Shown piece by piece: positions 416 through 43,244 of a stretch of DNA of 64,000 nucleotides. Source of the stretch: an uncultured Chloroflexia bacterium (GTDB taxonomy: Bacteria > Chloroflexota > UBA6077 > JACCZL01); contig CAVXYC010000028.1 of the NCBI GenBank assembly GCA_963765765.1, positions 64,001 to 128,000 on the forward strand. Direction: 5' to 3'. Position 1 is the stretch's first letter. The number at the start of each line of letters is the position of its first letter. Both the position numbers and the translations under genes were made by a program. A model generated the notes under the pieces. That model was given only the letters and a program-made list of their open reading frames with translations. It did no database searches and was not told where the DNA came from.

Positions 416-2426
416 ATGCTTTTCCGCTACTCGCGGTGGGACGGAACGCAACAGCTCGCAGAGCTGGACGCTGACGACCTCATGGATGCCATGGCCGACG
501 ATCTGCTCGCCGATGGCGACATGGAGCGCGCAGTCCAACGCCTCTTCCGTTGGGGTACGCAAGATCGCGAAGGGCACCGAGTCGATGGCCTACGCGATCT
601 ACTCGAGCAGCTTCGCCAGCAGCGCAAGAATCAGCTCGAACGCCATGATATGGATTCGCTCATGCAGGACCTCCAGGAGCGGCTAGAGAAGGTCAAGCAA
701 ACTGAGCGCGAGGGCATCGAGAAGCGCGTTCAATCCGGTCGTGAAAAGACGCAACAAGACTCGGACAATAGTGCGCTTCAACAGATGCTGGAGAAGCTGG
801 CCGATCAGAAACGAGAGTTTCTCGATCGGCTGCCAGACAGTCCCGCCGGGTCAATCCGAGAGCTTCGCGACTATGACTTCATGGATCCCGACGCGCGTCA
901 GCAATTCCAGGAGCTGATGGACATGCTGCAGCAGCAAATGATGCAGCAACAGATCCAGGGTATGCAGCAATCGCTCCAATCTATGACCCCGGAACAGATG
1001 CAGGGCCTGCGCTCCATGATGCGCGACCTCAACGAGATGCTTCGAGAGAAGCTTGATGGTGGCGAGCCCGATTTTCAGAAGTTCCAGGAAAAGTGGGGCG
1101 ACGCTTTCCCAAACGCAAATTCACTTGACGAGCTCATTGAAGAGATGCAGCGTCGCAACGCGCAGCTTCAGTCGCTCCTGCAATCCATGTCGGCTGAGCA
1201 ACGTCGCGAGCTCGAAGACATGATGCAGTCGCTCATGCAGGATCCTGGGCTCCAGCATGAGATGTCTGAGCTGGCTATGAACCTCGAGCTGCTATCTCCC
1301 AATCAGCGGTCAAGTCAGGGCTATCCATTCTCCGGCGATGAGCCGGTGACCCTTGAAGAAGCCATGCAGCTCATGCAGGAACTGCAGAAGATGGATGAGC
1401 TGGAACGTGAGCTACGGCGCGCCGAGGAGTCGGCGCAAGTCGATAAGGTCGACGCTGAGCGCGTTCAGGAGCTGCTGGGAGATGAAGCCGCGGAGACGCT
1501 CAGGCAGCTCCAGCAGATCACCAAGGTGCTTCAGGAAGCCGGCTGACCTCGAGCAAGAAGGGGATGAGCTTACGCTGACTCCGCGAGCTATTCGGCGCAT
1601 CGGTCAAAAGGCGCTAAAGGATATTTTCGCCACTCTGCGTCACAATCGATTCGGCAACCACGAAACTGATTTCCGAGGTGCTGGAACCGACCGCGTGGAC
1701 GAGACAAAGGTCTACGAGTTTGGCGATCCGTTCCTCGTCGATATTCGACAAACACTCATGAACGCGGTCCAGCACAACGGACCGATGGTCCCGCAGCGAC
1801 TCGATCCGCGCGACTTTGAGGTTTACCGGACGGAGCATCTGACGGAGTGCTCCACGGTCCTTATGGTGGACATGAGTCGATCAATGATTCTGCGCGGATG
1901 CTTCCTTGCAGCAAAGAAGGTGGCTCTTGCACTAAACAGCCTCATCAAGGGCCAGTATCCTCGCGACAACCTGTACATCATTGGTTTTTCTCTGTTTGCC
2001 AAGGAGCTCAAGGCTGAATCGCTACCCACGCTCACCTGGAACGAGTGGGTCTATGGCACAAACATGCAGCATGGGTTCATGCTGGCCCGCCAGCTTCTTT
2101 CGCGACACAAGGGTGGCAATCGTCAGGTGATCATGATTACCGACGGGGAGCCCACAGCTCACTTTGAGCCCGGTCAAACCTACCCCGAGTTCGCCTACCC
2201 GCCGACCTATCGCACGATTCAGGAGACCCTTCGGGAAGTTGCCCGCTGTACTCGAGACAAGGTCACCATTAATACGTTTATGCTCGAGCGTAGTCACATG
2301 TTGATGAGCTTCGTTGAGCAGATGACGCAGATCAATCAAGGACGAGCCTTCTATGCGGCCCCCGAACGGCTCGGCGAGTACATTCTGGTGGATTACGTCA
2401 AACAAAAGCGCAAAGTTGTGGCCTGA
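416..2426 (+). CDS. VWA domain-containing protein (Rv0959-like), split by one indel near 1545
   Basis: FRYSRWDGTQ N-terminus, coiled-coil middle, MIDAS motif DMSRS and ITDGEPTAH in the second frame; removing one G in ggctgacctc gives EAGYLEQEG and joins ORFs 416..1546 and 1353..2426. Confidence 0.85.
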
Positions 2427-32482: not shown

Positions 32483-33067
32483 TCAAGCGCTCACATCGTG
32501 CGCCAGGAGAATCGCTTCAGCAACTTCGCGCATGGACTTACGGCTGTTCATGCTCAACTTCTGGATCTTTCGGAAGGCCTCGGTCTCTTTCAGACCCTGC
32601 GCATCCATAAGCACACCCTTGGCGCGCTCCACCAGCTTGCGCGTCTCCAGAGCTTCCCGAGTGTCCCCTAGCTCCTGCTCCAACGAGCGGAACTCCTGGA
32701 ACCGAGCGAGGGCTACTTCAATCGCCGGAACTAGCTCAGCTTCGCCAAACGGCTTCACGATGTAGCCCATCACACCGGATTCACGGGCGCGATCGACAAA
32801 TTCGCGATCTGAGTAAGCGGTCAACAGGAGAACTGGCGCAACTCGCTCCTCGGCGAGGATTTTGGCTGCGCCAATCCCATCCAGCTCCCCGGGCATCTGA
32901 ATATCCATGAGCAGCAGATCCGGCTTCAGCTCACGGGCAAGATTGATTGCACTGCGACCGTCGGAGGCTTCACCCACTACGAGGTAACCCTGGTTCTCGA
33001 GCATCTCCTTGAGGTCGAGGCGAACCAGCGATTCATCTTCAACAATCACGATGCGATGTTGTGCCAT
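32483..33067 (-). CDS. pdtaR: Receiver-ANTAR response regulator (PdtaR-like)
   Basis: VEDESLVRLDL receiver; ANTAR RKLVERAKGVLM...EAFRKIQKLSM. Confidence 0.9.
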   Translation of the reverse strand: MAQHRIVIVEDESLVRLDLKEMLENQGYLVVGEASDGRSAINLARELKPDLLLMDIQMPGELDGIGAAKILAEERVAPVLLLTAYSDREFVDRARESGVMGYIVKPFGEAELVPAIEVALARFQEFRSLEQELGDTREALETRKLVERAKGVLMDAQGLKETEAFRKIQKLSMNSRKSMREVAEAILLAHDVSA

Positions 33068-33094
33068 ATGTCTTCTCCCGGACAGCAACAAGTG

Positions 33095-34591
33095 CTAGTC
33101 AGTTGGCAGTTGCTCGGCTCGAGGAAAGGAGATCAAGGTACGCACTCCACCGTCGTTTTCGATGCTGAGATCGCCCTTGAGATCTTCCCGGACGAGTGTT
33201 CGAACGATCTGGAGTCCCAGCCCACCCCGATTGATGTCAAATCCTTCTGGAAGTCCTCGCCCATCGTCGCGGATATCGATAAGCATGCTATCGTCGGTCT
33301 CTTCGAGGCTCACGACTATCGTTCCTTCCGAGCGATCGGCGTAAGCATGCTCCACAGAATTCTGAAGTAGCTCATTGATGATGAGCGCACATGAGGTTGC
33401 CTGTTGAGCGGGCAACATGAAGAGCTTTTGGCCTTCCAGCTTGAGTGAGATGCGCTTGGCCGGATCCAATGTGCCTCTCGTCACCTCACCGAGGATTCGA
33501 TTGCACACTTCATGAATGTTGATTGCGCTCGTCTCGTCCTTGGAGAGAAACTCGTGAACGAATGCGACACTCAGGATGCGATTGATGGACTCCTGGAGCA
33601 GCGCGGCCACGTCTTCGGAGTCTGTGCGACGAGCCTGAAGTCGGAGCAAGGCAGCGATCGTCTGGAGATTATTCTTCACTCGGTGATGAATCTCCTGGAT
33701 CATCGCAGACTTGATCTTGAGCTCCTGCTCCTTTCGGGTCTCTTCGGTGATGTCCTGAATAGCGACGATTGCACCCGGGGCGACGTCGCGCAATCCAAGG
33801 AACCGTCCAACTAGACCATCACGATGGATCGGCACGATCGGAATCACTCTCTTGATCCAGATCTGGTCTTGCTCCTCGACCTGTTGCTCCATGCAGACAT
33901 TCCGTTCCATGGCTTTGAAACAGATGTATTCATTCGTCTCAAGGTCAGAAAGCTGAGTATCCACGATGGAATCTGGATAACCTAGTCGACGGTAAAGATG
34001 CTCAGCAACCACGGTGGTGTAGCGAATCTGGCCTCCCTTGTCGATGATCAGCACTCCATCGTGAAGACCAAGGCGCCCCAGTGCTTCGCCACCCTGCAAG
34101 AGGCCCAATCGAAGCATTTCCCGCACGTGCGCGATGGCTCGGCGGAACGTGATGTCGCGCTTTCGCTGACGCTCATGCTCCAGCATGGCCATCTCGCTCA
34201 CGAGTACGGCGATAACTCCGCGGTCACCCATGATCGGCATAGCCTCATGCATGGTAGGCACCCCGGAGATGACGATCGCTCGCTCGTGATGCGCGTTTGG
34301 AGCGTCGATACAGCGAAACACGAGCGGCGACTCGGCCCGTCCAACTCGCTTGCCAACCTGACTTTGCGAATATAGAGAGGGGACCGGGTGCGGCTGCGCA
34401 TGGACTACCACTTGCATCTCATCGCGATCCATGGGCACGAGCAACATGAGGTCCGCCGAGCTCAGGTCAGCGACCAACGGCATGTTGTCTAGCGCAAGGT
34501 GAAGCCGCTCTTGATCCTGCTCGGAAAGAGCGCTCAATGATGCCAATGAAACGACGCCGGCGGTAGGGTCAGCCGACACTCGAACAGCCAT
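33095..34591 (-). CDS. pdtaS: Cytoplasmic HisKA_2 histidine kinase (PdtaS-like)
   Basis: ADLSSADL N-terminal domain; EIHHRVKNNLQ; NELLQNSVEHA; DDGRG; GLGL. Confidence 0.9.
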   Translation of the reverse strand: MAVRVSADPTAGVVSLASLSALSEQDQERLHLALDNMPLVADLSSADLMLLVPMDRDEMQVVVHAQPHPVPSLYSQSQVGKRVGRAESPLVFRCIDAPNAHHERAIVISGVPTMHEAMPIMGDRGVIAVLVSEMAMLEHERQRKRDITFRRAIAHVREMLRLGLLQGGEALGRLGLHDGVLIIDKGGQIRYTTVVAEHLYRRLGYPDSIVDTQLSDLETNEYICFKAMERNVCMEQQVEEQDQIWIKRVIPIVPIHRDGLVGRFLGLRDVAPGAIVAIQDITEETRKEQELKIKSAMIQEIHHRVKNNLQTIAALLRLQARRTDSEDVAALLQESINRILSVAFVHEFLSKDETSAINIHEVCNRILGEVTRGTLDPAKRISLKLEGQKLFMLPAQQATSCALIINELLQNSVEHAYADRSEGTIVVSLEETDDSMLIDIRDDGRGLPEGFDINRGGLGLQIVRTLVREDLKGDLSIENDGGVRTLISFPRAEQLPTD

Positions 34592-34625: not shown

Positions 34626-35246
34626 CTACTCGAAGAACTTGAGCAGGCCGAGCGCCGAATTTCCTAGGAGTGCAAGAGAAGTGTACTTGATCGTATTGCC
34701 GATCAGGCAGGCCAGAAATACTCTACTGATCGGAAGAGCAAGTGAGCCGGCGATCACTCCGATTGCGTCAAAGAATGGATTCGGGAAACTAGCAAACAGT
34801 AACACGGTGATGAATCCATTTTTCTTCATCCAATCCTCAGCGCGCGTCCACCACTTGCCACGCCGAGTCTCAATTGCCTCTCGGCTACCGAGCCCGACGA
34901 TGTAACCTGTCATCTCTCCAATTGAGCTTCCCAATCCGGCAAATGGTCCAACAACCCAGGGATTGATCATGGTTCCCGCACCGAGGACGGCAGCGAAGCC
35001 TGGTGCTGGCAAAAGCACCGTCGCGCTGGAGAAGAACATGATCAGAGAGATGCCGGGATAGCCGTATTGGAGCAACATCATCGGATCCATGCCGTTGGCG
35101 AAGGCCACACCAATTCCGACCATGAACGCGATCAGAAGAACGACGGCGGCTACCCAGATCCACCGAACGGTGGTCCTATGCGATCGCTTGGAAGCGGCGG
35201 GAAAGCCGGTGGATGTCGCGGCCATTTCACCGCCCTGGTTGAACAA
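34626..35246 (-). CDS. DedA/VTT-domain membrane protein
   Basis: GSSIGEMTGY.VG, FPNPFFDAIG. Confidence 0.85.
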   Translation of the reverse strand: MFNQGGEMAATSTGFPAASKRSHRTTVRWIWVAAVVLLIAFMVGIGVAFANGMDPMMLLQYGYPGISLIMFFSSATVLLPAPGFAAVLGAGTMINPWVVGPFAGLGSSIGEMTGYIVGLGSREAIETRRGKWWTRAEDWMKKNGFITVLLFASFPNPFFDAIGVIAGSLALPISRVFLACLIGNTIKYTSLALLGNSALGLLKFFE

Positions 35247-35863: not shown

Positions 35864-37798
35864 CTACGGGATCGGCGCCTGGGTCTGGCGCGCGGGAGTC
35901 GGGGCTGGTGTTGATGCGGATCCGCCCTGGTCCATCTGTGGCAGTTTGAAATATTGCCGGATAATCCGCATTGCGATGGGCGCGGCGTTCTTACTGCCCG
36001 TGCCCTTCTCCACAAAGACCGTGACCGAGATCTCAGGATCTTCCGCGGGTGCCAAGCCAGTGAACCAGCCATGCGTTGGTAGCGCGCCATTCGTGTCGCG
36101 AGGCCCTGTGTATTCACCAGTTCCGGTCTTGCCAGCGATACGCAGCTCCGGCACGCGATAATCCTTGAGAAGCTGGCCCGCGAACCCAGCCTCCATGCCT
36201 TCCAGAATCGTGGCCCGGTGCTGAGGCGACATGTCGATATCTCGAATGACCTGAGGAGGTACCGTGCGCACTTGCTGTCGGTCCGTATCCGCGATCTCTT
36301 TCACCAGACGCGGCCGAACAAGCTTCCCTCCGTTCGCCAGCGCGTTGGTGAAATTGGCTACCTGAAGCGGTGTTGACAACACGTATCCCTGACCAATGGA
36401 CATGTTGTACGTGTCACCCTTGACCCACCGCTCTCCGCGTCGCTGAAGCTTCCAGGCTTCATCTGGAATGACTCCAGCCGCTTCATTGGGTATGTCTATA
36501 CCCGTCATGCTTCCGTAGCCGTACTGGCGCGCGTATGCCGCGAGTCGCTCGTTGCCGAGTCCTTGAAAGCGCTCGGGCTCGTAGCCGCCCCCGAGATAGA
36601 AGAAATACACATTGGACGAGTTTGCGAGGCCGCCAATCATATTGAGTCGGCCCAAGACGGACCAATCGGGGAAGATCTGCCGATAGTTCGGGTCGTACTC
36701 GCTCGGCACGAAAATCGCACCCTTGCTCTCGATCACCGTATTGCGGTTTGCAATGCCGTCCTTCAACGCCGCCGCGGCAGTCACCAATTTGAACGTGGAC
36801 CCAGGTGGGTACAGTCCAGACGCGGCTCGATGGAAGAATGGCTGAGAAGGGTCCTTGAATAGCTGTTCAAGCTCGTCTTCACGATCATCGTCAGCAAAGA
36901 TGTTGTCGTCGTAAGTCGGCAAGCTCATCATCGCGAGGATGTCGCCGGTCTTCGGATTCATAACGACAGCAACGCCAGTGGTCTCGCCGTTCAGCCCCTC
37001 CTGGAGTATGCGAGACACTTCTCGCTGCAGGTCCAGGTCTACGCTGAGAATGAGATTGCGCCCAGGATCTGGGTTTTCAATCCGAATTTCGTTCACCGGT
37101 CGTCCACTAGCCTCGACCTCATACATCCTGCGACCAGGCTGCCCGCGCATCACGCTTTCGTACTGCTCTTCGAGACCGGCCGCGCCGATGCGGTCATTGA
37201 TCGTGTAGCCTTCTCGATCGATCTTCGAGCGGTATTCTGCTGGCGACAGTAAAGTAGGTGAGATGAGACCGGTGTACCCCAGCAGGTGCGCGAGTAACGG
37301 GCCCTCGCTGTATTTTCGGGTGGACTCTACGCTGATAACCACTCCTGGCAGCTCTTCATGACGCTCTTCAATACGGAGTGCCGCGGTGCGCTCGACGTTG
37401 TACTTCACTGGAATAGGCGTGAAGAGATCGTCGTCAGATCGGCGTCGCTCGATGACCCGTCGAAGGTCGATGGGCGACATGCTGAGAAGCGCCGCGAGAC
37501 GGTCGTAAATCTCGGTTTCACGGCGAGCTGGAATATCAGCCGGAACGATGGATGCGACGAAAATCGGAGCATTGGATGCGAGAAGCTGACCGCGACGATC
37601 GTAAATGACGCCGCGGGGAGGCTTGATTGCGCTCACACGAACGCGGTTGTTGTCCGCTTTCTGGCGAAAATTCGGGCCGTCAACGATCTGGAGTCGCCAG
37701 AGCTGGGCTCCAAGGATGAGAAAAGATATGACTACCGCGGCTCGGAAGAGGTTCGCCGGCAGTCTCGGCGCGCCCGTTCGCTCAGATGCATCAAGCAT
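35864..37798 (-). CDS. mrdA: Penicillin-binding protein 2
   Basis: PPRGVIYDR, YPPGSTFK, SSN, AGKTGT; N-terminal TM. Confidence 0.93.
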   Translation of the reverse strand: MLDASERTGAPRLPANLFRAAVVISFLILGAQLWRLQIVDGPNFRQKADNNRVRVSAIKPPRGVIYDRRGQLLASNAPIFVASIVPADIPARRETEIYDRLAALLSMSPIDLRRVIERRRSDDDLFTPIPVKYNVERTAALRIEERHEELPGVVISVESTRKYSEGPLLAHLLGYTGLISPTLLSPAEYRSKIDREGYTINDRIGAAGLEEQYESVMRGQPGRRMYEVEASGRPVNEIRIENPDPGRNLILSVDLDLQREVSRILQEGLNGETTGVAVVMNPKTGDILAMMSLPTYDDNIFADDDREDELEQLFKDPSQPFFHRAASGLYPPGSTFKLVTAAAALKDGIANRNTVIESKGAIFVPSEYDPNYRQIFPDWSVLGRLNMIGGLANSSNVYFFYLGGGYEPERFQGLGNERLAAYARQYGYGSMTGIDIPNEAAGVIPDEAWKLQRRGERWVKGDTYNMSIGQGYVLSTPLQVANFTNALANGGKLVRPRLVKEIADTDRQQVRTVPPQVIRDIDMSPQHRATILEGMEAGFAGQLLKDYRVPELRIAGKTGTGEYTGPRDTNGALPTHGWFTGLAPAEDPEISVTVFVEKGTGSKNAAPIAMRIIRQYFKLPQMDQGGSASTPAPTPARQTQAPIP

Positions 37799-37946
37799 GA
37801 ATGATCCTAGAACAGGCCCAATTCTACAGGAGAGATGACTTGAGGGGACAACCAGATCATGATGTCCATCGACCACATGAAGGAGTAAGCGCTATCGGTC
37901 CTGATCCGTATAATCGGCGGTCAGATGCTTCCCGGGGAGGCCCAGT

Positions 37947-39166: not shown

Positions 39167-40348
39167 TCAGTCGTCCTGGATTGAACCGCTCCGACGTCGA
39201 AGGAACGACGGTGCGTCAAAATCGTCATTTGACTGTTCTCGCTCCGCCCTCGTCTGCCGGGGCGACCGACTCATGGAGTCCACGGACGTTTGCTCCCGAC
39301 GCCGGTCTGCTTGCTTCTTCAGACCAGTTGCAATGACGGTGATCTTTATATCAGGCTGCGGATGGGGATTGACAACAGCGCCAAAGATGATGTTTGCTGA
39401 TTCGTCGACTGCTTCTCTGACTGCATCGGCGGCATCGGCAACCTCGCTCAGTGCCAGATCCGGACCGCCAGTGATGTTCAAAAGGACGCCACGGGCACCT
39501 TCAATTGAAACGTCGAGAAGCGGGCTATTGAGCGCGGCGCGGGCCGCCTGGACCGCTCGGTCTTCACCACGAGCCTCGCCAATGGCCATGAGCGCAGGAC
39601 CCGAGTCAGACATGATCGACTTGACGTCCGCAAAGTCCAGATTGATGAGCCCAGTCATTGTTACCAGGTCTGAAATACCCTGGATACCCTGACGAAGAAC
39701 GTCATCCGCCATCTTGAATGCGTCCACCACGGTCATGCGAACGTCACCCAGCCGGAGCAGCTTGTCGTTCGGGATAACGATGAGGGCATCGACCTCATTT
39801 CGAAGTCGCTCCACTCCCTCGGCCGCGATGCGAGCACGTTTCGCACCTTCGAACCGAAATGGCAGCGTTACGATTCCGACGGTGAGAGCGTGAGTCTGTT
39901 GGCGTGCAATCCGAGCAATCGTTGGCGCGGCGCCAGTCCCCGTTCCGCCCCCCATGCCAGCGGTAACAAAGATCATGTCAGCGCCGCTGAGCGTTCCAGC
40001 CAGCTCATCTTGTTCGATCTCGGCTGCCCGCTCGCCCGCGCTCGGGTCGCCGCCGGCACCCAGGCCGCGGGTGGATCTGGCACCGATGATGATCTTTCGA
40101 TAGGCGTTGGAGGCTGCCAACGCCTGTGCGTCGGTATTTACTGCTATGAACTCGACACCTTGCACACTGGCGTCCACCATGCGGTTCACAGCGTTCCCGC
40201 CGCCCCCGCCTACACCTACGATCTTGACCTCGGTAAAGCCCTTTGCAGGAGAGGACAGTGGCGAATCGATGATTCGCGGAACCACTGCTTCCTGTCGAGA
40301 CAGGTCAAGAACCCGCCCGGGGTCAAACCCACCGCTAAGCTTGGACAC
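39167..40348 (-). CDS. ftsZ: Cell division protein FtsZ with N-terminal extension
   Basis: GVGGGGGNAVNRM, GMGGGTGTG, T7 loop INLDFADVK, C-terminal core DDFDAPSFLRR; GGAGGAGG RBS before GTG 40348. Confidence 0.95.
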   Translation of the reverse strand: MSKLSGGFDPGRVLDLSRQEAVVPRIIDSPLSSPAKGFTEVKIVGVGGGGGNAVNRMVDASVQGVEFIAVNTDAQALAASNAYRKIIIGARSTRGLGAGGDPSAGERAAEIEQDELAGTLSGADMIFVTAGMGGGTGTGAAPTIARIARQQTHALTVGIVTLPFRFEGAKRARIAAEGVERLRNEVDALIVIPNDKLLRLGDVRMTVVDAFKMADDVLRQGIQGISDLVTMTGLINLDFADVKSIMSDSGPALMAIGEARGEDRAVQAARAALNSPLLDVSIEGARGVLLNITGGPDLALSEVADAADAVREAVDESANIIFGAVVNPHPQPDIKITVIATGLKKQADRRREQTSVDSMSRSPRQTRAEREQSNDDFDAPSFLRRRSGSIQDD

Positions 40349-41102
40349 GGCGAATGACCTCCTCCGCGAGCGTGGTATAGATATCGACGGCTTTATCGGC
40401 ACCGGAATATTGGAACACCGAAGTTCCGGCCGATCCTGCTTCAAGAATCTTGCTGTTTGTCCCAACTTCAACGTCGAACACCTTACCGCTCCATCGCTCA
40501 CGTAGATATTCGGACACCTGGCGCTCTTCGCGTAGTCTGCGGTCCAATTTGCTTAGCACAATGCCTAACACTTTGAGTCGGGGATTCAGATAAAGGATCT
40601 CCTGGATGCTTTCCTCGAGCATCTGAAGACCCTGTAGTGAGAAGAATCGCGCTTCTGTTGGAATAACCACCTGGGTAGCCGCCACAAGCCCGTTGATGGT
40701 TAGAAGTCCAAGAGATGGGGGAGTGTCAATCAAGATGAAGTCGTACCTGGAATCCACCTGCAGTAAATGATCTCTCAGCCGCAGCTCGCGTCCCAGCTTG
40801 TTCATCAGGGCCGCCTCTGCGCTGGCCAAAGGGACCGACGCTGGCACAACGTCCAGCTTCTTGACGCCGCCGTTCTCCACGGGCAGCACGGGCAACGGGA
40901 AATTCCTGTCAAGCAGGGAGTCAGCAACCGTATGAGTGACGCGCTTCTCAAGCCCGAATGCGCTGGTCAGATTTCCCTGCGGGTCCATGTCAACCAGCAG
41001 GACGCGCTTGTCTCGGCGAGCCAACGCGGCACCTAGATTGGCCGTCGTGGTAGTCTTGCCGACACCGCCTTTTTGATTGGCGATGGCGATCACAGTCGCC
41101 AC
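40335..41102 (-). CDS. ParA/Soj-family ATPase
   Basis: Deviant Walker A NQKGGVGKTTT, DMDPQGN, IDTPP; GGAG RBS before GTG 41102; 14-bp overlap with ftsZ. Confidence 0.93.
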   Translation of the reverse strand: MATVIAIANQKGGVGKTTTTANLGAALARRDKRVLLVDMDPQGNLTSAFGLEKRVTHTVADSLLDRNFPLPVLPVENGGVKKLDVVPASVPLASAEAALMNKLGRELRLRDHLLQVDSRYDFILIDTPPSLGLLTINGLVAATQVVIPTEARFFSLQGLQMLEESIQEILYLNPRLKVLGIVLSKLDRRLREERQVSEYLRERWSGKVFDVEVGTNSKILEAGSAGTSVFQYSGADKAVDIYTTLAEEVIRRVQA

Positions 41103-41283
41103 ATATTTCTCCGTTCTTCTAAACAGAAGAATAACATTCGAAATGGTAGCACGGGCGTCCTCACGTCGACAGTTGGATCGAGGCTGCCCGCACTTCGATT
41201 CCGTCTCAATTGTCAGCTCACAAGATGATTCGACCCTTTTCGGCAAATGTTGAGGGGAACGTTGTGGGGGATTGTCGTTTGCG

Positions 41284-41847
41284 ATGATTCAATGCCCGGG
41301 TTGCGGTGGACGAAATCCTGAGAATGCGGTCGTCTGCGACTGGTGCGCAAGGCCGCTCCGGGGAGCCAGCTCCCCGGAGCGTTCATCCCGACGAATCGGA
41401 CTCCCAATCGTTATCGGAGTTGTGCTGATCGCGAGCGCACTCGTGGCAGTCATCGCTCTGTCCTCTCTCTCACGAAGCGGAATCATCGCGACTCCCGTCG
41501 TAGTGGTCTCCAGTCCAATTCCCGCCGCGAGTCCACGCGCCATTGCCCCAACATCGATTCCAACAATCACACCCTTGCCACCCAGTACGCCTGTAGTCCG
41601 CAGCGCCAGAATCGTGAATACCAACGGTGAAGGCGCGTTGATAAGACGTGAGCCGTCGGTCAATGCCCCCAGCGCGGGGCTGGTGCGCGAGGACGGTGTA
41701 GTAATGCTTCTGGGCCCTGAGGAGACAGTCCAGGCACAAGTTTGGCGTCAGGTGGAAGACGCGCAAGGAAATCAGGGGTGGATCCGAGCTGACTACCTGG
41801 TTCAGGTCGAAGCCGCCAGTCCAATGCCGCTTGCTCCACCACCCTGA
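41284..41847 (+). CDS. Zinc-ribbon + TM + Pro-rich linker + SH3-like domain protein
   Basis: CPGC...CDWC; IVIGVVLIASALVAVIAL; GALIRREPS...WRQV...GWI. Confidence 0.8.
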   Translation: MIQCPGCGGRNPENAVVCDWCARPLRGASSPERSSRRIGLPIVIGVVLIASALVAVIALSSLSRSGIIATPVVVVSSPIPAASPRAIAPTSIPTITPLPPSTPVVRSARIVNTNGEGALIRREPSVNAPSAGLVREDGVVMLLGPEETVQAQVWRQVEDAQGNQGWIRADYLVQVEAASPMPLAPPP

Positions 41848-41943: not shown

Positions 41944-42342
41944 ATGACCGACCGCATCAACCGCGAGATCGACGACCTGTTGCGACATATGGAAGATCGG
42001 GAGCGCCGTTCTGTCAAGCGGCGGTTCCAACGATGGTCGCACGCATTCTCCGAATCATGGCGCAGTATGTTCGGCGGCTTTCTCCGTCGATCACCCGTGG
42101 AGCAGTTCATGATTGCCAGCGTTCTGCTCCTGATGATCTCATTGGTGATGCAGTATTTCTCCAAGACGCTCGCCGGCTACGCCAGTATCCTTAGCATTCT
42201 GCTGTTTGTGCTGGCCCTGGTCCTCTCAGTCACTTCGCCAGGACGCGGTGGCTACCAGAAGCGGTGGCGTGGCAAAGTCATCGACTACAACCAACCCACC
42301 ATCTGGACACATATCCGTCAGTGGTTCAACCGCCGCCGCTGA
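41944..42342 (+). CDS. Hypothetical two-TM membrane protein
   Basis: TGCTATAAT at 41889-41897; two hydrophobic helices; KRWRGKVIDY tail. Confidence 0.75.
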   Translation: MTDRINREIDDLLRHMEDRERRSVKRRFQRWSHAFSESWRSMFGGFLRRSPVEQFMIASVLLLMISLVMQYFSKTLAGYASILSILLFVLALVLSVTSPGRGGYQKRWRGKVIDYNQPTIWTHIRQWFNRRR

Positions 42343-42493: not shown

Positions 42494-42838
42494 CTAGCTC
42501 CGAGTCCCTCGCCATCGATGGGGGTCAAACCCGTGCGCGCGGAACCAGTAATAGATCCCATCCCAATAAGGCTCAGGATCGATAGCCAGGACATCGCCGC
42601 CATCACGGGCTCGCGACATGACCAGCTTTCCCCATTGCTCAGGATTCTGACGGGCAGCCCCCACGTCGATGCTCGCTGCGGAGCTGTCGGGACCTTCCAG
42701 ATCGTTCAGAAAATCGGTGAGTAGCGGCGTATCGGCGCGCCACGCTTTCAACACCGCCTCCGAACCCCCGGATTGTCCGACCAGGATAAGGGCGTCATCG
42801 CCCTTGTCTCTGGTGCGCCATTCAATGCGTTCGGTCAT
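42494..42838 (-). CDS. Hypothetical protein, tandem paralog B
   Basis: Clearly homologous to 42888..43244; GGAG/AGG upstream. Confidence 0.8.
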   Translation of the reverse strand: MTERIEWRTRDKGDDALILVGQSGGSEAVLKAWRADTPLLTDFLNDLEGPDSSAASIDVGAARQNPEQWGKLVMSRARDGGDVLAIDPEPYWDGIYYWFRAHGFDPHRWRGTRS

Positions 42839-42887: not shown

Positions 42888-43244
42888 TTAGGAACTCGAG
42901 CGACCACGCCATGGGTGCGGATCCACACCGCGCGCCCGGAACCAGTAATAAATACCATCCCAGTAGGGCTCGGGATCGATATCGAGCACATCGCCGCCAT
43001 CGACCGATCGGGAAATCACGAGCTTGCCCCACTGTTGCGGATTGCGATGACTCACGTCGGTCTCTAGACGCCCCTCGGCGGTCTCGAGGTCGTCCATGTC
43101 GTTGAGGAAATCGGCAATGACGCCCTGATCGGCACCCCACGATTTCATCACCGTGTCGCCGGCTTCGCCGTACTCTCGAACGAACAACAGGGCATCATCG
43201 CCCTGGCCTTTGGTTCGCCACTCTATTCGTGCAGTCATGGTCAC
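42888..43244 (-). CDS. Hypothetical protein, tandem paralog A
   Basis: Shares RIEWRT, QWGKLV.SR, IDPEPYWDGIYYWFRA with the downstream gene. Confidence 0.8.
   Translation of the reverse strand: MTMTARIEWRTKGQGDDALLFVREYGEAGDTVMKSWGADQGVIADFLNDMDDLETAEGRLETDVSHRNPQQWGKLVISRSVDGGDVLDIDPEPYWDGIYYWFRARGVDPHPWRGRSSS

Follow-up and report, generated by a model that had tools for sequence, protein, structure and literature searches.

The window analysed here is a stretch of 64,000 nucleotides from the genome assembly of an uncultured Chloroflexia bacterium, and the system in question is a pair of genes in it, parA and ftsZ2, which encode a ParA-type ATPase and a second FtsZ (Table 1). The window belongs to contig C28 of the assembly (6.49 Mb in 33 contigs, 91.8% complete, 6.9% contamination), a contig of 210 kb whose G+C content (0.599) is similar to that of the remaining assembly. 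A first-pass annotation had described the two genes as overlapping, with the ribosome-binding site of ftsZ inside parA, and had proposed that an N-terminal extension of FtsZ could act as the partner peptide of ParA. The overlap and the internal ribosome-binding site were borne out from the sequence: ParA begins with MATVIAIANQKGGVGKT from a GTG at 41102 and ends with a TAG at 40337-40335, the GTG of ftsZ2 lies at 40348-40346, and GGAGGAGG precedes it by 9 nucleotides. The description of the ATPase as Soj-like also held, and KGGVGKT (residues 11-17), DRRLR (187-191) and NSK (216-218) were all found.

Table 1. Positions of the parA-ftsZ2 pair, its signals and its neighbours in the window.
Feature	Position	Strand	Remark
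parA (FtsZ2-linked, 255 amino acids, GTG start)	40335..41102	-	Soj-like deviant Walker A ATPase, clade apart from Soj
ftsZ2 (393 amino acids plus stop, GTG start)	39167..40348	-	complete FtsZ paralogue with N-terminal extension and C-terminal peptide
Overlap of ftsZ2 GTG and parA TAG, 14 nucleotides	40335..40348	-	
Shine-Dalgarno sequence of ftsZ2, GGAGGAGG, inside parA	40358..40365	-	9 nucleotides 5' of GTG
Ribosome-binding site of parA, GGAG	41109..41112	-	6 nucleotides 5' of its GTG
Coding region of the FtsZ2 N-terminal extension, residues 1-38	40235..40348	-	predicted flexible
Tail motif, residues 7-13 (G-F-D-P-G-R-V in the window)	40310..40330	-	consensus G-F-[DN]-P-x-R-[LM]
C-terminal conserved peptide DDFDAPSFLRRR, residues 373-386	39191..39232	-	
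Inverted repeat TTCTTCT-N4-AGAAGAA	41114..41131	.	present, not conserved, probably no operator
Class-B penicillin-binding protein (PBP_dimer and Transpeptidase)	35864..37876	-	downstream of ftsZ2
SH3 protein: Cys-rich N-terminus (CPGCGG...CDWC), hydrophobic stretch, SH3_4	41272..41847	+	divergent neighbour
orf132, small, membrane-like, 132 amino acids, no family	41944..42342	+	divergent, upstream of parA

FtsZ2 scored well above the cut-offs of the Pfam families Tubulin (166.6 bits, cut-off 33) and FtsZ_C (116.7 bits, cut-off 27) and of the NCBIfam ftsZ equivalog TIGR00065 (406.8 bits, cut-off 295.2). We aligned 39 of 50 FtsZ2 sequences, with identities to the window protein down to 43%, leaving out close kin (L014, L026, L028, L032), an incomplete sequence (L017), one with an unclear start (L023), one with a run of X (L033) and near-duplicates (L118, L120, L125, L135). 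GGGTGTG (G133-G139) and NxDFAD (N236, D238, F239, A240, D241) were invariant in all 39, and the C-terminal peptide mostly followed D-x-[DE]-x-P-[SA]-F-[LI]-R-R-R. With the GTP loop, the T7 loop and the C-terminal core peptide all found, the FtsZ of the window is intact, as had been claimed. The linker and the C-terminal peptide are missing in 6 of the 39 (families f19, f21 and f31), which end at about 342 amino acids, after the core. These short lineages (L127, L129, L131-L134) nonetheless keep the N-terminal motif described below and the ParA gene.

The same genome encodes another FtsZ on contig C20, in the order murF-mraY-murD-ftsW-murC-murB-ftsQ-ftsA-ftsZ1. We call this copy, from the division and cell wall (dcw) cluster, FtsZ1, and the window copy FtsZ2; the dcw-type place after ftsA is held by FtsZ1, and ftsZ2 stands behind parA instead. 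Over the core, FtsZ1 and FtsZ2 share 57% identity. The window FtsZ is a paralogue of the dcw FtsZ1, a relationship that had first been raised as a possibility. In a quick IQ-TREE tree (LG+G4, midpoint root) of 39 FtsZ2 and 25 FtsZ1 sequences, a single branch split the two groups, with a value of 98 in the Shimodaira-Hasegawa-like approximate likelihood ratio test (SH-aLRT); its sequences come from Chloroflexota alone. Five genomes from the phylum's other families were checked as well, and all five encode FtsZ1, one of them with the gene split over three frames.

In the AlphaFold2 model of FtsZ2 (predicted local distance difference test, pLDDT, 86.2), the usual FtsZ body starts at residue 38 and is modelled with a pLDDT above 90. 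Its first strand was placed at residues 41-46, which gives a tail of about 40 residues, in agreement with the extension of some 38 residues noticed at first. The tail itself was modelled with a pLDDT of 53-66 and contained two short helices, at residues 10-14 and 22-28. FtsZ1 orthologues mostly have about 10-20 residues ahead of the first strand, and the tail motif is absent from them.

In the order to which the genome belongs, the GTG of ftsZ2 overlaps the parA stop in 27 of 30 loci (by 8, 11, 14 or 26 nucleotides), a spacer being present in the other three; an overlap (8, 11 or 23 nucleotides) was likewise seen at all 20 loci examined from the phylum's other families. At five loci (L016, L027, L030, L031 and L032) the overlapping GTG is the sole ATG, GTG or TTG in the open frame, which was followed to 120 nucleotides beyond the start of the alignment. 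A Shine-Dalgarno-like GAGG or GGAGG precedes the overlapping GTG at the same place in orthologous loci. Judged by the overlap and the sole-start loci, the extension must be translated.

Within the tail, F8 was found in 39 of 39 FtsZ2 sequences and G7, P10, R12 and R18 in at least 90% each. The consensus reads [RK]-G-G-F-[DN]-P-x-R-[LM]-x4-R-P-x2-V-V-P-x-I. The mean frequency of the top residue was 0.80 over residues 7-13, 0.72 in the core, 0.57 in the C-terminal peptide and 0.24 in the linker; the tail motif is conserved as strongly as the GTPase core.

Of 39 order genomes, 34 had a match of the FtsZ2 type, with an alignment beginning at query residues 1-6; one of these matches is a contig-end fragment. 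Matches of the FtsZ1 type start at residues 25-42, and the two genomes from other orders of the class included in the search had this type alone. ParA orthologues (62-100% identical) were present in 34 of the 39 order genomes, the five misses being 57-76% complete, and were absent from all 27 genomes searched in the class's other orders. Of 401 genomes sampled evenly across the phylum, 93 had an orthologue-level ParA (E <=2e-89, 58-100% identity) and 14 more had Soj-level matches only (41-45%). The unpublished genomes G100 and G196 are counted in the 93, and the unpublished G006 (FtsZ1 only) in the order counts.

Directly behind the ParA orthologue, ftsZ2 was found at all 30 loci tested in the order and at all 20 taken from the phylum's other families. 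We also searched 185,579 species genomes for the ParA-clade motif PTEARFFSLQG, written as a degenerate pattern; among the 80 loci listed of 83 matching stretches, ftsZ2 stood behind parA in 79, and the contig of the 80th stops 2 nucleotides past parA. The three sets share genomes and their counts are therefore not additive. Because the pair recurs in every orthologous locus examined, it is far beyond chance; the adjacency is not a peculiarity of the window genome and is kept across the phylum. In each of eight sampled single-contig genomes (2.1-3.8 Mb) the pair lies on the one contig. We read parA-ftsZ2 as a module of two genes that is complete in itself and of long standing in Chloroflexota. 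Among the matches listed, every titled record is an uncultured metagenome-assembled genome (MAG), and all but L188 and L200 are labelled Chloroflexota, Chloroflexi or Chloroflexia. These two bear the depositor title 'Proteobacteria bacterium', have the same tail motif and are 64-73% (ParA) and 53-64% (FtsZ2) identical to the window proteins.

The ParA of the window matched the Pfam families AAA_31 (179 bits), CbiA, ParA and MipZ (37.4 bits, cut-off 20.7), and its nearest solved structures were the Soj-type ParA 8RAY (2e-52, 181 bits), followed by 1WCV and 2BEK. It scored 106.9 bits with NCBIfam ParA_partition (cut-off 180) and 68 bits with the MinD model TIGR01968 (cut-off 212.9). Its C-terminus coincides with the end of Myxococcus xanthus ParA(21-274), and there is therefore no MinD-type tail; the protein stops where the core stops, as the reported lack of an amphipathic C-terminal helix implied. 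In a tree of 40 FtsZ2-linked ParAs and 26 Soj proteins of the same order and class, one branch separated the two groups (SH-aLRT 100). The Soj set was 26 of 30 soj-parB loci, with L058 and L063 (pieces), L069 (no in-frame Walker A) and L074 (short) left out, and the tool flagged a long-branch join at L129. FtsZ2-linked ParA and Soj are 36-44% identical, and this value together with the separate clades ruled out a recent soj duplicate as the origin of ParA. The gene downstream is ftsZ2, not parB, and an ordinary soj-parB is kept elsewhere in the genomes.

The soj of the window genome itself (L036/L058, G000:C32, soj-parB) is split over two frames and is intact in a same-genus genome. A third parA-like gene (G000:C15:387542-388402) has no in-frame Walker A and was dropped as a tree outgroup; both defects are probably assembly indels rather than signs of pseudogenes. 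An orphan ParB_N protein of 354 amino acids (L037, G000:C19, open reading frame 790-1854, minus strand) has neither a GLGRGL N-terminus nor a neighbouring parA, and similar orphan copies occur in most relatives.

Compared with Soj, 34 of the 255 ParA positions are specific to the FtsZ2-linked clade. The window ParA was placed in the register of M. xanthus ParA by a phmmer alignment to 8RAY, in which all published residues fell on the expected letters. According to the part of PMC12462528 available, the ParB-binding pocket of M. xanthus ParA comprises V116, L150, L152, L155, L187 and L192, and E176, L181, T184 and Q190 are shift-perturbed. Nine clade-specific positions (149-152, 154, 155, 157, 161 and 168) fall inside the segment that holds the ParB-peptide pocket as given in that part. 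The residues corresponding to L150, L152, L155 and L192 remain hydrophobic (L131, L133, I136 and L172). That of L187 is an invariant Glu, E168, in the clade and mostly Leu in the Soj of the same genomes, and the flanking helix reads TEARFFSLQGLQM in FtsZ2-linked ParA versus VQCEYLALEGLGQ in Soj. A remodelled pocket with a newly acquired acidic residue, opposite a tail with an invariant Phe and Arg, would be the expected look of a partner switch. At the position of M. xanthus R238, which we take to be the DNA-binding arginine equivalent to B. subtilis Soj R189, the clade has an invariant Lys, K218, with a putative role in DNA binding. R238 is the residue exchanged in the ParA* variant of M. xanthus (PMC12462528, in part).

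MinC_C was above its cut-off in 119 of the 401 phylum genomes and in none of the 93 carriers of the pair, two of which (G089 and G122) had sub-threshold matches only; this pattern fits a role at the division site. Neither MinC nor SepF was found in the window genome, at its completeness of 91.8%. Pfam searches of the open reading frames scanned at about 24-46 kb of the window gave no parB, min, ftsA or sepF. To this extent the earlier statement that no such gene lies nearby was upheld; a class-B penicillin-binding protein (PBP) is, however, encoded downstream of ftsZ2.

The inverted repeat ahead of parA, which had been put forward as a possible operator, is the sole one of at least 7 nucleotides per arm within 41050-41300. 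Its arms read TTGTTCT and ACATGAA in a same-genus relative, the changes are not compensatory, and an operator role is not supported. Promoter and terminator scans gave only chance-level results. RNA-library contigs from four runs of four studies, 90-99% alike, cover portions of both genes; none of them spans the parA-ftsZ2 junction with 31 nucleotides on each side, DNA is possibly present in the libraries, and these matches are not evidence of co-transcription. The library shares are small (0.08-0.29) and no habitat is therefore named.

In many genomes of the order the pair is accompanied by the SH3 protein and orf132, neither of which turned up at the 20 loci taken from the phylum's other families. 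Downstream, the order loci carry a convergent PFK gene, a class-B PBP gene or both; in another family of the order, f3, six loci have the PBP gene straight after ftsZ2 and in the same orientation. Beyond the order, the flanking genes have no relation to these (GAF, DUF402, PspA, SpoIID, DHODH). PFK, the class-B PBP, the SH3 protein and orf132 were each considered as a third component and rejected, being kept within the order only. The sole universal unit across loci is parA-ftsZ2, an operon with no other partner gene. In the window genome the mreB-mreC-mreD-rodA cluster has no class-B PBP, other class-B PBPs lying in the dcw and fhaA-fhaB-rodA-pbpA clusters, and for this reason the PBP beside ftsZ2 may be the elongation enzyme, PBP2. 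The genome has three SEDS/class-B PBP sets (including L149, G000:C20:325000-337000, and L150, G000:C29:131000-142000), and its fhaA-fhaB-rodA-pbpA cluster resembles the actinobacterial one. Elsewhere in the window, two tandem paralogous open reading frames on the minus strand (42494-42838 and 42888-43244; 114 and 118 amino acids, no Pfam family) share the pattern ...IEWRT...GDDAL...YWDGIYYWFRA.G.DPH.WRG. A PdtaS-type histidine kinase (GAF_PdtaS, HisKA_2) with an ANTAR response regulator is encoded at 32483-34591 (minus strand), with a DedA/VTT membrane protein (34626-35246) upstream of these genes.

Genes for the partners of ParA/MinD ATPases (ParB, MinE, ParG, PomX, McdB) follow the ATPase gene, and each of these partners works by way of a brief N-terminal stretch whose basic residues are indispensable (PMC7993993 and PMC10241942, both in part). 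FtsZ2 fills this slot downstream of ParA, where no alternative candidate gene is present, and it has the genetic traits of such partners: an adjacent overlapping gene, a flexible N-terminus and the conserved R12 and R18. In our view the best explanation, to which we give about an even chance, is that ParA would be docked and activated by the tail and that FtsZ would be placed by the two-gene system. FtsZ2 is predicted to be a polymerisation- and GTPase-competent paralogue of FtsZ1, whose flexible tail (G-F-[DN]-P-x-R-[LM], then a second conserved Arg) would most likely dock onto and activate the co-encoded ParA. ParA-ATP dimers would coat the nucleoid, and the many tails on an FtsZ2 filament would bind the ParA dimer interface and trigger ATP hydrolysis. 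The filament would become the cargo of ParA, which would move it to a set position along the nucleoid or keep it there, by analogy with the diffusion-ratchet model of PomXYZ and McdAB. In lineages without Min, FtsZ2 might set the division site via its C-terminal peptide, perhaps mixing with FtsZ1. From the sequences we infer the binding of the tail to ParA, the stimulation of the ATPase, the binding of ParA to DNA, the positioning and the link to division. We are more hesitant about the full proposal that a nucleoid-surfing FtsZ polymer is both cargo and ATPase activator of ParA and replaces Min in much of Chloroflexota, which is possible and on balance doubtful. A predicted complex of two ParA, two ATP, two Mg and FtsZ2 residues 1-40 gave scores of 0.02 and 0.04 (mark 0.32); it was made with own alignments and with controls not run, and it weighs neither way.

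Several observations weigh against a docking tail that positions FtsZ. The tail of the window protein has a net charge of about zero and a Pro inside its motif. A hidden Markov model built from 29 ParB N-termini of relatives, with the consensus [RK]-G-G-L-G-R-G-L-[DG]-A-L-I-P, scored FtsZ2 tails no better than shuffled tails (median -0.9 versus -1.7 bits, maximum 1.7 versus 8.8). With no signal above the shuffles, a derivation of the tail from the 5' end of parB was dropped; the likeness of tail and ParB lies only in position and residue type, and no homology is claimed. The clade-specific changes in ParA could suit a different partner. FtsZ2 proteins without linker and C-terminal peptide (6 of 39) are a poor fit to a membrane-anchored ring in their lineages. 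Neither MinC nor the pair was detected in 189 of the 401 phylum genomes, and the non-overlap of MinC and the pair rests on few clades whose members, as kin, are not independent, which makes it a weak functional argument. No cultured carrier was seen among the titled records or the names in the protein collection ('MAG ... Chloroflexota bacterium'). For the proposal of the first-pass annotation that FtsZ is the partner of ParA, the operon, the paralogy and the conserved tail stand in favour, and detectable similarity to the ParB motif does not. Of the outcomes which that annotation named as speaking against the proposal, neither an adjacency confined to one genome nor an unconserved or untranslated extension was seen.

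The genetic linkage and the conserved tail would be shared by a system in which ParA inhibits FtsZ2 in the manner of MipZ or MinCD: ParA dimers at the nucleoid or the pole would bind FtsZ2, at its tail or at its core, and keep it from polymerising, the tail being a tether, and the result would be nucleoid occlusion instead of cargo transport. MinC is absent from the carriers, the MipZ family of Pfam is matched above its cut-off, and ParA-family division regulators are known to inhibit FtsZ (PMC3355305, in part). Such inhibition nevertheless appears unlikely to us, as ParA is far closer to the Soj type (8RAY, AAA_31) than to MipZ and a pure inhibitor needs no dedicated second FtsZ. We also know of no N-terminal FtsZ tail that takes part at the MipZ surface that binds FtsZ. 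We judge it similarly improbable that the tail is unrelated to ParA and binds the class-B PBP, the SH3 protein, FtsZ1, the membrane or the FtsZ body, with parA and ftsZ2 merely co-regulated, for example where segregation is coupled to a specialised role in septation or elongation. The silence of the ParB-motif profile would suit it, as would the class-B PBP and SH3 genes that accompany the pair within the order, that PBP being possibly the elongation one. Residues 22-28, predicted to be helical, might pack as the N-terminal helix of archaeal FtsZ does. Those neighbours are lost outside the order, however, where the tail motif and ParA are kept; the changes in the ParA clade fall precisely where a partner peptide binds, and a strict 1:1 overlapping adjacency at phylum depth is typical of interacting pairs, which is no proof.

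That FtsZ2 filaments and ParA form a TubZ-like machine, partitioning a replicon or another cargo with no role in division, strikes us as very improbable. Tubulin-family filaments segregate plasmids in other bacteria (PMC9178275, in part), and the FtsZ2 proteins without a C-terminal membrane-anchor peptide would agree with such a machine. FtsZ2 is, however, a bona fide FtsZ by its TIGR00065 score, and no gene for a centromere-binding adaptor of the TubR type is adjacent. The pair also shares the single contig of the eight one-contig genomes, and in the window it sits amid housekeeping genes on a large contig of ordinary G+C content.

To our knowledge, how the Z ring is placed where Min and Noc are lacking has yet to be explained for most bacterial phyla, and the known ParA/MinD division regulators all act on FtsZ via other proteins or as inhibitors. 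If ParA and FtsZ2 do work as proposed, with FtsZ as the direct cargo of ParA, no simpler system of this kind would be known. The pair would offer a handle on the cell biology of an abundant soil and marine phylum in which the lineages concerned have no genetic model, and the ATPase with a 20-residue tag could make a compact synthetic positioning module. The literature, as far as its text was available in part, mentions neither a parA-ftsZ gene pair nor an FtsZ2 tail; the supplements of PMC9871819 could list the paralogue. The available part of that paper names Chloroflexota where it sets the FtsZ of the candidate phyla radiation next to theirs and in connection with CetZ-like proteins.

Among known systems, the proposed one is like PomXYZ of M. 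xanthus, in which a nucleoid-bound ParA-family ATPase positions a large cargo at the division site, the activator relies on a brief, conserved N-terminal stretch in which basic residues are required, and a filamentous cargo displays many of these peptides (PMC7993993, in part). The window operon differs in having no PomX- or PomY-like gene, in that its proposed cargo and activator is an FtsZ paralogue, and in that its ATPase belongs to another, Soj-like clade. ParABS also has the ATPase gene first and the partner second with overlapping frames, the window ParA is nearest to Soj-type structures, and in both cases the extreme N-terminus of the partner carries a conserved motif with a central Arg between hydrophobic residues; unlike ParB, however, the partner here is an FtsZ and no CTP-dependent parS-binding clamp, and the ParB pocket is changed (L187 to Glu). 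In MipZ of Caulobacter and MinCDE, too, an ATPase of the ParA/MinD family determines the site of FtsZ assembly. MipZ requires ParB and is not known to be encoded together with ftsZ, and in contrast to MinCDE, the window ParA has no MinD membrane helix and the genome no MinC. Two complete FtsZ proteins, one of them outside the classical cluster, are also found, as FtsZ1 and FtsZ2, in chloroplasts, cyanobacteria and archaea (for archaea, PMC9871819, in part), but none of these paralogues is described with a coupled ParA gene or with the N-terminal motif of FtsZ2. Set against the theme of cargo positioning by ParA/MinD ATPases, the unusual feature of the pair would be that an FtsZ is both the cargo and the activator.

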